This document shows, in pieces, positions 10,965 through 14,135 of a stretch of DNA of 64,000 nt. The stretch lies in NCBI GenBank assembly GCA_031551125.1, contig JAVBOB010000001.1, positions 1-64,000 on the forward strand, given 5' to 3'. Within the stretch, counting starts at the first letter, position 1. Each line of letters opens with the position of its first letter. The notes beneath the pieces are model-generated. The model was not told the origin of the DNA, did not search any database, and was given only the letters and a program-made list of their open reading frames with translations. The stretch is from Bacteroidales bacterium. Its GTDB lineage: Bacteria > Bacteroidota > Bacteroidia > Bacteroidales > UBA932. The position numbers were made by a program, and so were the translations under genes.

Positions 10965-13900
10965 TTATTTACCGCCTTTTGCCTGCCAGGCCAAGAAGTT
11001 TTTGTCTTTCTTTAGGTCTGCAAAATCGCCAAAGTCGGAATATTTTGACAGTACGAAGTCAACAATACGGTAAGCCTCATCGGTGCGACCCAGCTTAAGC
11101 AGAATGCGCACTTTCGTATCGTAAATGTAGTAGTGGCTGCTACCTTCAATACAATCTATACCGCGTTCAACGGCTTTTAGCGCTTCTTCCAGCTGTCCTG
11201 TTTCCATTAAGAACCATCCAAGCGAGTTTCCGGCTTCGCGGTTTACCTCTTTATGGAACTGTCCCTCATCGGTGAAGACCCAGATTAAGCCAACAGGCGG
11301 AACCAGCTCTAAGGCCTTGCGGTTGTATGCAATCAGCTGTTGCAGGGCAGCCTCGCGCTCTTTGCCGTCTATGTTGGCTATTAATCGGCCTAAGCAGTAC
11401 ACAAGCCCGTAGTAAGTGTATTGTAGGTTGTAGGTGGTGCAGGGCTTGCCCGATTCGAACAGCGTAACGGCTTCTTCGAACGTTTTCATGGCTTCTTGCT
11501 TTTTGCCGTTAACCATTTGTTCTGCGCCTTTCTTTACAATTTTATCTACCGCACCTTCCTTTTCCCTTTCCCTATCAATACTCTTGCACCTTCTAAGGTC
11601 GAACTTAACGCCTGTGGGGAAGGTTTCGAAAATGCGCTTAAGCGTAGCCTCATTCAGCTGGGCGTACTCTAGCTTTACCTCTTTGAGGTTTTTCAATGCA
11701 AAGAACGATTCGGGCAGCGTTTCCAATTCCGTAAAGCTGATGGTAAGCTTCTGTAGCTTGGGCATATTGGTAAAAGCGTTTTCGGGCAACCGCTTTAGGC
11801 ATTTTCGCTCTACAATGTGCTTACCCGCTTTTGAGCTGTACTCCTTTTCTTCGCCCCAGCGGCTTAGGTCTAGCTCTTCCAGCGAGGGGATATTCCATAT
11901 TTGCGGCAGTTCCAACAGCTCCAGCTTAGCATAAGGTCTTGAACCGCCGTCGAGGGTTAGCTTGCGCAGGTGTGTTAGCTTGGAAAGGTCGCAAACCTTT
12001 TCAACCAAACCAAGGCAGTCAATCTCAAGTTCCTCCAGCATTTGCAGCTTAAGAAAGCGGTCGCCAATTTCGGCCAGCGGTAAGCTTTCCAGCTTAAGCG
12101 TCTTCAGGTTTTTTAAATCGAATATTACGGTGGCCTTACCCGTTATTTTACAGATAGACAGCTTATCCAAGCTGTCCAGCTTAGCCATTGATTGCGGCAG
12201 GTCGCAGCATGTTTCCTGAAGATAAAGTTCCTTTAGCCCGCTCAGGTCACCGATTTCGTTGGGTAGCGATTTCAGGCTGTACAGGTATTTAAGGTTGAGT
12301 GATCGCAGCTCCTTCAGCTTACCAATCTCTGCAGGAAGAGTTTCCAGGCGGCACAGGTACTTAAGATTGAGCGAGCGTAGCTTCTGCAGCTTACCAATCT
12401 CTGCAGGCAAGGTTTCCAGTATGTTATGTTCCAAATCCAAATCTTCCAGCTCGCTCAGCTCTCCAATGCGAGGTGAAAGCACCTCGAGGTCGTTATTGCT
12501 AAGGTCTAGCACCTTTAGCTTAGTAAAGCGGAACAGCTGCTCGGGAAGTTTCTTTATGTGCCTTCCGGACAGGTCTAATCTTGTAATCTCATCAGCGTTT
12601 TTTAGCAGCTCGTTCAGCTCTTTTACCAGCGCTTCACTGGCAGGCATGGCATTTTTGCGCAAGATAGGCGCACCTTCCTGCATAGCTTTTCGAATAGCCC
12701 GGTAATCCATGCTTTCGCCATCGTCATCTATGAATTTTGGAAGCAGCGCTTTTAGGGCCTCATCACTATCAAAGTCAATGGCACAGTTCGTCTGGTAATC
12801 GTTGATAATCATTGCTTCCGGCTGCTTTGCAAACCACATACTGAAGTATAGTATGTTCACAATAAGCTTAGCTCTTGTATTTCCGCCTATGTTCAGCTCT
12901 CCTCCGTCATCGCCAAACATTCCCATAATGCCATTTTCAACCTCCACGTTGCCTCTTATCGATACGTTGGCACAGCCGCCCAGCAAAAGGTTTTTTGCCT
13001 TAACGTTTCCGGTAACCAGCAAAAAGCTGCCATCTAGGTCGGTAGCCCACTCAAGGTCGCCATCTACTATTAAATCACCATCAACAATAAGGTTGAATTC
13101 GCCACCATTTACCGAGCCAACGTGCAGGTTTCCCTTGTGCAGGCAGGTTTCTTGCTCATCTGCAAAATCAAGAAAGGGGAAGTTAATATCCTCGGATATT
13201 TTGTAGGTTTCCTCTGCCTCTTCCGCATTAACAAGCGCAATAATTTCTTTGTAGTTTTTATCAGTCAGGCTTTGAATGTTTGTAGTTTGAGAGCTTTTGT
13301 TGCTGCTCTTTGCTTCGGCAGCTGCTTTGGGTTTGGCTACTGTAGGCTCAGCGGTAGCAAGCCCGTTTTCTACATGGTAGTCCTTAATCAGTTCGGCCAG
13401 CTCGGTAACAACCGAGTAGAACGTCATATCGCCCTCGTGCCAGCCATCGTTCATGCCCAAATCCTGATAGTCGAAGTGGCGCACCTTCATTTCGCCTGTG
13501 GTATCGGCACTGCTAATAACGTAGAGGTAGAAACGTTCGCCTTCGGGGCTGGCGCAAAACAGCAAGCCGTCATTCATAATTTCTCCTTCCTCATCGTAAT
13601 CTTCAAACTCCTCGCGGTATTCGCTGGTTTGCTCTACCATTTCTTCCGGAGAAAGCAGGCTCGTATTATTTCCGCTGCCCTGTCCTAACAGCTCACCATC
13701 GAAGTAGAACATTCCGTAGCGGGTAACGAAATCGGTGTATGAAGCAGGTAGCTTCACCTTTAGCTTTTTTTCTGCCTTGGCTATTTCTTTTGCTGTAACA
13801 AGGTCTGAGAATTCAACCGATTCTTCAATACCGTTTGCCTCTAACCATTCATTCAGCTCATCTAACACCTGCTTTGCCTGTTCGGCCTGAGCTGTTGATG

Positions 13901-14135
13901 CAGAGGCTGTGGTTACAGCACCTTCCGTGGCAGCCTCAACGTAGCCTTTTTTTGTCTTTTCAGCAATCAGCTTATCGGCTTCTTTTTTGCAGGCAGCTTC
14001 ACTATCAAATGATTTGCTGCCGGTTTGCCCCGCTGCACCTACCTTACCATAGGTAGTTGTGAGTTCAGAGCCATTTACCTCAATAGTCCAAAACTTGTTC
14101 GACTTATCGTCCGTGTAGATGAATGTGCACTTCAT
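10965..14135 (-). CDS. paralog 5: giant multidomain protein WGR - SUKH (SMI1/KNR4-like) - beta-solenoid-like domain - leucine-rich repeats - TPR-like C-terminus (1056 aa)
   Basis: WGR: [35 protein letters not shown]...[44 protein letters not shown]...[17 protein letters not shown]. Shared block: [16 protein letters not shown]...[92 protein letters not shown]...[26 protein letters not shown]. The tail is TPR-like and helical. Confidence 0.7.
   Translation of the reverse strand: [1056 protein letters not shown]

Follow-up and report, generated by a model that had tools for sequence, protein, structure and literature searches.

The first gene of an array of 11 co-directional genes in a Bacteroidales genome (GenBank assembly GCA_031551125.1) encodes a 1056-aa protein that combines a WGR domain, a SUKH (SMI1/KNR4) domain, a beta-solenoid that matches no Pfam model, leucine-rich repeats (LRRs) and an all-alpha tail resembling tetratricopeptide repeats (TPRs). 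The array lies at the beginning of contig JAVBOB010000001.1, of which we analysed the first 64,000 nt (the window). Our analysis indicates that the protein is probably a cytoplasmic, catalytically inert multivalent binding scaffold and neither an enzyme nor a secreted effector. Among the functions considered, that of a polyimmunity-type protein, which would bind and neutralise proteins delivered by competitors, ranked first with a probability of about 40%: the organisation of the array and the presence of a SUKH domain fit the polyimmunity concept, but a cognate toxin, the functional link that defines it, was found nowhere. Judged from sequence comparison, the overall layout belongs to a recurrent, uncharacterised and widespread family; the SUKH domain in the slot between the WGR domain and the solenoid is new and appears to be the only feature peculiar to this protein.

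Domain organisation of the 1056-aa protein

The open reading frame (ORF), including the stop codon, occupies positions 10965..14135 of the minus strand and starts with ATG; this start is backed by homologues that likewise open with a WGR domain. The frame is unbroken over 3.2 kb, and the GC content is even across the gene (0.45-0.495). A first-pass annotation of the DNA had proposed all five modules from the sequence, and each of these calls was borne out. The protein is a true member of the WGR, SMI1_KNR4 and LRR families of Pfam, and AlphaFold2 yielded a full-length model with a predicted local distance difference test score (pLDDT) of 82.3 and a predicted template modelling score (pTM) of 0.62.

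The WGR domain (residues 1-69) scored 72.6 bits against a Pfam cut-off of 22, with a pLDDT of ~90. At the eponymous motif it has Y29-G30-K31, where close homologues have [WYF]-G-[RK]; Y-G-K would be a conservative variant of W-G-R. The SUKH call rests on the SMI1_KNR4 model (PF09346), which matched residues 113-221 with 45.1 bits against a cut-off of 25.4, and on SUKH_5 (36.6 bits) and SUKH_6 (36.4 bits), both with a cut-off of 27. Identity of the SUKH region to its counterpart in a Flavobacterium protein (P0096) is 61%, and to a stand-alone SUKH protein (P0097) it is 49%.

The solenoid was modelled with high confidence (pLDDT 95.2, pTM 0.91) and can be aligned with four further ORFs in the array (29-44% identity); residues 286-500 have no Pfam match, and a PDB sequence search with a solenoid profile found nothing. 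The LRR region scored above the Pfam cut-offs of LRR_14 (81.4 bits against 40), LRR_8 (65.9 against 27) and LRR_4 over residues ~505-830. Its first six units are canonical (LxxLxLxxNxLxxLPxxIGxL), and the model shows ~14 strand-turn units whose structural matches in Foldseek were Leptospira LRR proteins, SHOC2 and internalins; a Foldseek search with the full-length model returned LRR proteins only. A tandem duplication of 72 bp within this region corresponds to an insertion of 24-25 aa relative to P0001-P0005 and is missing from every aligned homologue, and we regard it as sequence evidence of ongoing LRR repeat expansion.

The tail was modelled confidently as helices over residues 851-1052. 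Its Pfam TPR matches, at residues 869-893 and 970-995, are all below threshold (best TPR_2, 21.4 against 27), and orthologous tails score 27.3-28.7 with TPR_2, that is, at its cut-off. The final ~60 residues are the best-conserved part of the tail across phyla, and the tail is kept in P0001, P0002, P0225 and P0216.

Pfam and NCBIfam scans revealed no recognisable catalytic domain in the protein or in its array, and every identified module is a protein-interaction fold. In agreement with the first-pass annotation, there is no signal peptide, judged from the WGR domain at the very N-terminus (from residue 1 onwards), an arrangement shared by homologues, and the Pfam scan gave no match to Por_Secre_tail, the C-terminal domain of the type IX secretion system (T9SS). 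The protein is therefore presumably cytoplasmic.

Relatives and fusion history

A search of a 5.8-billion-sequence collection retrieved no protein that combines the five modules, and its best matches are limited to residues ~296-1056. This part, comprising the solenoid, the LRRs and the tail, is collinear at 38-41% identity with free-standing proteins of 750-780 aa, such as P0002 of Stackebrandtia. A genome scan located the solenoid-LRR-tail module as a gene of its own, at 36-40% identity, in ~20 genomes of actinobacteria; these belong to Streptomyces, Spongiactinospora, Nonomuraea, Lentzea, Allorhizocola and Stackebrandtia.

The layout WGR, variable slot, solenoid, LRR and tail occurs in other Bacteroidota proteins of 820-1517 aa. 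P0225 (1053 aa) carries a WGR domain, two solenoids, LRRs and a tail; it is 30% identical to the 1056-aa protein over 804 aligned positions (45% in the WGR domain), and the C-terminal tail shared by the two is strikingly conserved. P0216, from a Raineya metagenome-assembled genome (MAG), has a WGR domain, a PDZ domain, three solenoids, LRRs and a tail (30% identity over 771 positions, 44% in the WGR domain). According to their domain tables, P0235, P0249 and P0285 resemble P0225 in layout, without SUKH. The differing contents of these relatives suggest that the segment from the WGR domain to the last solenoid is a variable slot.

The WGR-SUKH head, in turn, is encoded by a gene of its own in Flavobacterium sp. 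ASV13 (P0096), and two further proteins (P0029 and P0036) combine WGR and SUKH with other domains. The 1056-aa protein thus looks like a domain-shuffled 'Rosetta-stone' fusion, in which a WGR-SUKH head is joined to a solenoid-LRR-tail body through a disordered linker. The first-pass annotation had not recognised the architecture: the SUKH slot was indeed seen nowhere else, but the WGR-solenoid-LRR-tail arrangement exists in the five proteins named above, and solenoid-LRR-tail is free-standing in actinobacteria. The check that it had suggested, for fusion partners in homologues, thus returned the same layout without SUKH in independent assemblies and WGR with SUKH in Flavobacterium.

The beta-solenoid family

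A profile search of 1.84 billion representative sequences indicated that the solenoid is widespread, with 2312 clusters (defined at 50% identity) at E <=1e-3 and 1300 at E <=1e-10. Domain partners were taken from the best 150 clusters, 84 of which are multi-domain. The Pfam partners among these 84 were LRR (33), WGR (17), ankyrin repeats (3), SUKH (3) and DUF4116 (3); the others were TPR, Sel1, MORN, PDZ, WG_beta_rep, DUF4241 and DUF6892. No recognised catalytic domain was seen among the 84 multi-domain members. A divergent 'type 2' solenoid, represented in the window by the ORF at 9484-10200, occurs with its relatives beside the main type in five array lineages. Under any functional reading, the solenoid is a sizeable domain family that lacks a Pfam model.

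Related arrays in other genomes

The modules of the 1056-aa protein recur, fused in other ways, in arrays of other genomes, where WGR and solenoid domains are joined to a variety of partners within a locus (Table 1). The content of our array differs from that of the Tannerella MAG array, which has a homologous flanking gene (46% identity) and shares one array gene at 90% identity. This MAG is the nearest genome in the collections searched; from these identities and the 71% match of ORF 7010-7999 in Parabacteroides sp. PF5-9, the source organism is probably a relative of the Tannerellaceae. A contig from an ENA metagenome (L074, positions 88-7283) carries three consecutive WGR-headed genes, the WGR domains of which are 66-78% identical to that of the 1056-aa protein; two of the three heads also match the window at the DNA level, and one gene encodes two WGR domains fused to an adenylation domain of an ATP-dependent DNA ligase. 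This constant head with variable bodies is reminiscent of cassette systems.

DKNYY and WG_beta_rep proteins recur at the margins of related Bacteroidota arrays (L004 5605-6804, L071 22392-23291 and L003 5181-5822), so the arrays may be accompanied by a broader set of families. Next to the stand-alone module of actinobacteria, we found an ankyrin-solenoid gene in eight Streptomyces loci and a gene encoding an X-SUKH protein in three; there were no further conserved neighbours.

Polyimmunity as a possible role, and alternative functions

Polyimmunity loci are co-directional, closely spaced, toxin-free and strain-variable, and their classes include Imm-SUKH, Imm-LRR and Imm-Ank (Zhang et al. 2012, PMC3482391). 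The array is likewise co-directional and mostly tightly spaced, contains no toxin gene, and varies in content between related strains; its proteins share the SUKH, LRR and ankyrin fold classes with polyimmunity proteins, and several putative binding domains are carried by one polypeptide. The toxins to which SUKH immunity proteins were linked first are ones that degrade nucleic acids (PMC3113570); the SUKH fold is recognised as one that confers immunity to nuclease toxins. By analogy with these proteins and loci, an immunity role is plausible.

In such a role, the SUKH domain, the LRR horseshoe and the TPR-like tail would each offer a protein-binding surface, so that one polypeptide could capture several targets. 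The WGR domain and the solenoid, each of which is found on a variety of proteins within an array, would act as common docking modules, the former binding nucleic acid or a shared partner and the latter binding solenoid paralogues. Proteins delivered by competitors would be bound in this way and neutralised. If this is correct, the 1056-aa protein is an unusually large polyimmunity protein, and the repertoire of interbacterial defence gains the WGR domain and a Pfam-less beta-solenoid family of at least 1300 clusters.

Several observations weigh against an immunity role. No toxin, Rhs, type VI secretion system (T6SS) or other delivery gene was found in the array or near any relative examined, and no toxin domain was found in the array, beside the Flavobacterium gene encoding P0096, or beside the SUKH gene of contig L071. 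When 148 neighbours of solenoid genes, from ~30 diverse loci within the size limit of the scan, were assigned to Pfam families, only generic ones such as MFS, SDR, TetR and transposases came up, with no toxins, immunity families or secretion genes. No known Imm family beyond the SUKH, ankyrin and LRR classes was found in the array, and six of its 11 proteins have no Pfam or NCBIfam match above cut-off, Pfam Imm families included. The WGR domain is mentioned in neither of two reference papers on SUKH and polymorphic-toxin immunity (PMC3113570, PMC3482391), and a literature search for WGR with SUKH surfaced only PARP papers, via author names. A binding partner is known for none of the modules, and owing to a shallow alignment AlphaFold2 models the SUKH part with low to moderate confidence. 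In actinobacteria, the solenoid-LRR-tail module mostly occurs as singletons, so it needs no array.

The array thus departs from described polyimmunity loci in four respects: neither the array nor its relatives showed a link to toxins, PMC3482391 does not describe WGR or the solenoid as immunity domains, most array members match no Imm family, and the same set of modules recurs across phyla. This recurrence points to a functional unit as opposed to a random assortment. The proposal of the first-pass annotation, a multivalent immunity or decoy protein, is in line with the polyimmunity concept and with the co-directional, toxin-free, strain-variable array, but it is weakened by the missing toxin gene, by the six proteins without a family, and by the lack of the recombinase and the low GC content that mark rAID-1 clusters.

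The recombinase-associated acquired interbacterial defence (rAID-1) clusters of Bacteroidales begin with a 5' gene for a XerD-like tyrosine recombinase and have a GC content of <=41% (Ross et al., 10.1101/471110). Our array is similar in being a co-directional Bacteroidales array with possible orphan-immunity content and repetitive intergenic sequence. Unlike in rAID-1, its 5' neighbour is a 631-aa gene (14271-16166), and no recombinase was seen in the genes scanned around it; its GC content is 43-49%, and its intergenic repeat is a genome-wide element and not array-specific. The array is not a rAID-1 cluster.

An assembly anchored on nucleic acid is a tentative alternative to a polyimmunity function, and the first among its rivals. 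The WGR domain would tether the WGR-headed array proteins to DNA or RNA ends or nicks, where the SUKH, LRR and ankyrin modules would act, for example by blocking nucleases or organising repair. The WGR domain of PARP binds DNA breaks, and this precedent, together with the DNA-ligase fusion among the closely similar WGR heads of L074, argues for such an anchor; a WGR-like domain with HEAT/ARM repeats in a type XIII retron protein (PMC7736814) and the original tie of SUKH immunity to nucleic-acid-degrading toxins point the same way. However, Pfam and NCBIfam scans found no ligase, nuclease or other nucleic-acid enzyme in the array of the window, the motif carries Y and K where W and R would stand, no experimentally shown ligand was found for a bacterial WGR domain, and the actinobacterial core module works without WGR. 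The domain matches the Pfam WGR model strongly, as PARP-type WGR domains do, but no PARP catalytic or helical domain follows it.

As in the retron type XIII accessory protein (PMC7736814) and E. coli proteins of the MolR/YehI type (WGR with DUF4132), the WGR domain heads a long, non-catalytic repeat scaffold, and many WGR proteins with alpha repeats were among the WGR matches of our homologue search. The repeats differ, being LRR/TPR here and HEAT/ARM-like DUF4132 there, and the window contains no reverse transcriptase, SWIM or vWA/MoxR partner genes.

It is also conceivable, if doubtful, that the arrays, rather than being sets of unconnected immunity genes, represent one undescribed, enzyme-poor multi-protein system conserved between Bacteroidota and Actinomycetota. 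With WGR and solenoid as shared docking domains, comparable to the homotypic adaptor domains of other conflict systems, this system would assemble SUKH, ankyrin, LRR-TPR and propeller modules (and the WGR-ligase in one relative) on nucleic acid. The 1056-aa protein would then be the fusion that shows which parts cooperate. The fusion pattern would amount to a testable interaction map, in which SUKH is linked with the solenoid, the LRRs and the tail, and the ankyrin-solenoid and 'type 2' solenoid proteins are placed as neighbours.

NLR-like and STAND systems typically use LRR and TPR sensors. On this precedent, the protein might be the sensor or adaptor of a dispersed defence system, its LRR/TPR part sensing an invader protein and the effector being encoded elsewhere. 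Array content that varies among relatives and a weak PADLOC match to WGR_XIII (E 0.0011) are consistent with this function, which we nevertheless consider unlikely: the array includes no NTPase, effector or PADLOC system component, and no conserved enzymatic neighbour was found in ~70 loci. PADLOC assigned the array proteins to no defence system, returning generic ankyrin matches and the marginal WGR_XIII match only, and the array is outside any PADLOC system.

A polymer or cytoskeletal scaffold, in which the solenoid would polymerise like bactofilin and display the ankyrin, LRR and SUKH adaptors, is quite improbable. NCBI names some solenoid members 'polymer-forming cytoskeletal protein', yet no Pfam model match supports this name; the bactofilin model is matched by none of 51 members, and helical segments stand at both ends of the beta-helix. 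The identity of the solenoid to bactofilins, tapirins and autotransporter passenger domains is 5-17%, and on the structural model its likeness to bactofilins and other right-handed beta-helix proteins is at the level of the fold only.

The first-pass annotation had also raised an effector that interacts with eukaryotes, and our data make this very unlikely. Such an effector would be built from eukaryote-like ankyrin repeats and LRRs; the nearest matches of the LRRs are host-binding LRR proteins of Leptospira, Xop effectors of Xanthomonas (below threshold), Scribble and SHOC2, and the closest relatives of the array occur in Tannerella and Parabacteroides genomes, which we take to be gut-associated. 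However, there is neither a signal peptide nor a T9SS C-terminal domain, and soil actinobacteria commonly carry the core module. The best NCBIfam match is the Leptospira fibronectin-binding family of LIC_11051 (NF047464), at 132 bits against 1000, and only the WGR and LRR stretches match. The matches to XopL, XopAC and XopAE are also far below threshold (97.8-102.1 bits against 450-600) and are confined to the LRR region. Both LIC_11051 and LIC_12901 (WGR, LRR and DUF4132) share with the 1056-aa protein an N-terminal WGR domain followed by the same LRR subtype, and no signal peptide. LIC_11051 has been reported to be extracellular and to interact with host components (PMC11674859), and in a comparison by description, no SUKH, solenoid or TPR tail is listed in the papers for the Leptospira WGR-LRR proteins (PMC11674859). 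The protein is outside the LIC_11051, XopL/XopAC/XopAE and bactofilin families.

An assembly chimera, or a pseudogene fused from two neighbouring genes, would explain why SUKH lies between WGR and solenoid in no other protein and why the junction is a low-complexity linker, but it is extremely unlikely because the reading frame is intact and the GC content flat over the gene, proteins with the collinear, SUKH-less architecture and other inserts (a solenoid or PDZ) come from independent assemblies, and WGR is fused to SUKH in Flavobacterium.

The array and its surroundings

The array runs on the minus strand from position 14135 down to 438 (Table 1). Its gaps range from a 4-bp overlap to 380 bp; seven of the 10 are <=69 bp, and the rest are 135-380 bp. 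Four genes encode paralogues of the solenoid, which in one case is joined to ankyrin repeats. Two of the six orphan proteins were compared with PDB sequences, with no match. None of the loci fetched contains a homologue of the 126-aa ORF directly 3' of the large gene, and a sigma-70-like promoter match lies just 5' of this ORF (10670-10642). The ORF was considered as a T6SS tube protein (Hcp/TssD-like), a candidate for which family and PDB searches gave no support. A SUKH-like N-terminus in the ORF at 3768-4994 was likewise rejected (hhalign probability of 0.4% against a very shallow SUKH profile).

Upstream of the large gene, a candidate promoter element was read from the sequence; TAnnTTTG is the consensus of the Bacteroidetes-type -7 box. 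The divergent 631-aa gene that flanks the array is 46% identical to the gene at the same position beside the Tannerella MAG array (L003 3213-5048), and it may regulate the array. At its other end, the array lies directly downstream of the end of an rRNA operon, with which it is convergent. The GC content across positions 1-14000 (0.43-0.49) equals that of the surrounding chromosome.

Table 1. Positions of features in the window, and gene order in related arrays of other genomes. Residue numbers are those of the 1056-aa protein.
Feature	Position	Strand	Remarks
WGR domain, residues 1-69	13929..14135	-	Pfam PF05406
Helical linker and SUKH (SMI1/KNR4), residues ~95-260	13356..13853	-	PF09346, SUKH_5/6
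Disordered Ala/Lys/Ser/Thr-rich linker, residues 265-294	13254..13343	-	pLDDT <50; no homologue aligns
Beta-solenoid, residues 286-500	12636..13280	-	Short helical segments flank the beta-helix on both sides
LRR region, residues ~505-850	11586..12623	-	~14-15 units; LRR_14/LRR_8/LRR_4, AlphaFold2 strands, Foldseek
72-bp tandem duplication	12273..12419	.	2 copies, 85% matches; adds one LRR unit
All-alpha TPR-like tail, residues 851-1056	10968..11585	-	AlphaFold2 helices
Candidate -7 promoter box TACATTTG	14201..14208	-	66 nt 5' of the ATG
Orphan ORF, 126 aa, candidate gene	10248..10628	-	No family or PDB match
'Type 2' solenoid paralogue, divergent, stand-alone, 238 aa	9484..10200	-	Clusters with Streptomyces ankyrin-solenoid domains
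Solenoid and ankyrin-repeat protein, 443 aa	8017..9348	-	Counterparts in Tannerella, Parabacteroides and Flavobacterium
Orphan ORF	7010..7999	-	71% identical to an array gene of Parabacteroides sp. PF5-9; no Pfam/NCBIfam match above cut-off
Orphan ORF	5064..6629	-	No Pfam/NCBIfam match above cut-off
Orphan ORF	3768..4994	-	No Pfam/NCBIfam match above cut-off
Orphan ORF	2981..3748	-	No Pfam/NCBIfam match above cut-off
Stand-alone solenoid paralogue, 234 aa	2137..2841	-	
Stand-alone solenoid paralogue, 222 aa	1442..2110	-	90% identical to Tannerella sp. MAG protein P0037
Orphan ORF	438..1445	-	No Pfam/NCBIfam match above cut-off
Terminator-like hairpin	290..345	-	26-nt arms, 88% complementary; after the last array gene
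5S rRNA gene, complete	30-138	+	Rfam 82.9 bits; convergent with the array
Divergent 631-aa gene	14271..16166	+	Flanks the array on its 5' side; no Pfam/NCBIfam match above cut-off
~300-bp intergenic repeat	6662-6953, 10653-10957; partial inverted copy 9379-9477; also 16228-16396, 59327-59409, 60994-61099		
Tannerella MAG array			WG_beta_rep; propeller; solenoid+Ank; solenoid; WGR+solenoid; ...
Parabacteroides PF5-9 array			DKNYY; solenoid; propeller; solenoid+Ank; solenoid
Flavobacterium ASV13 array			WGR; WGR+SUKH; WGR+solenoid+Ank; solenoid (closing gene, 235 aa, 60.6% identical to ORF 9484-10200)
Marine Bacteroidota array, contig L071			WGR-solenoid×2-LRR-tail; 233 aa; 236 aa; SUKH; ...; WGR+solenoid; ...; DKNYY
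Raineya array, L073			1517-aa protein; 211 aa; 223 aa (weak solenoid)
Streptomyces arrays, L008 and L009	L008 6405-12574; L009 395-6453		628-aa protein with C-terminal SUKH (X+SUKH); Ank+solenoid; solenoid+LRR+TPR

The ~300-bp repeat occupies the two longest gaps of the array. Its copies are 72-94% identical and contain several GCTCC-GTTA-GGAGC hairpins and a GTCATTGCGAGCGAAGCGA motif. An integron- or rAID-type array repeat was rejected, since copies also lie outside the array, at 16.2, 59.3 and 61.0 kb; because of these copies, the repeat looks like a genome-wide element of the repetitive extragenic palindrome (REP) or miniature inverted-repeat transposable element (MITE) kind.

The remainder of the window is ordinary chromosome, with genes for Mfd, PNPase, MetH and peptidases. 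Within the region 31434-38000, an ABC exporter with a C39 peptidase (32597-34825) is followed by the stretch of lowest GC content in the window (0.35 at 36-38 kb), and this region may be a locus for bacteriocin export and bacteriocin precursors.

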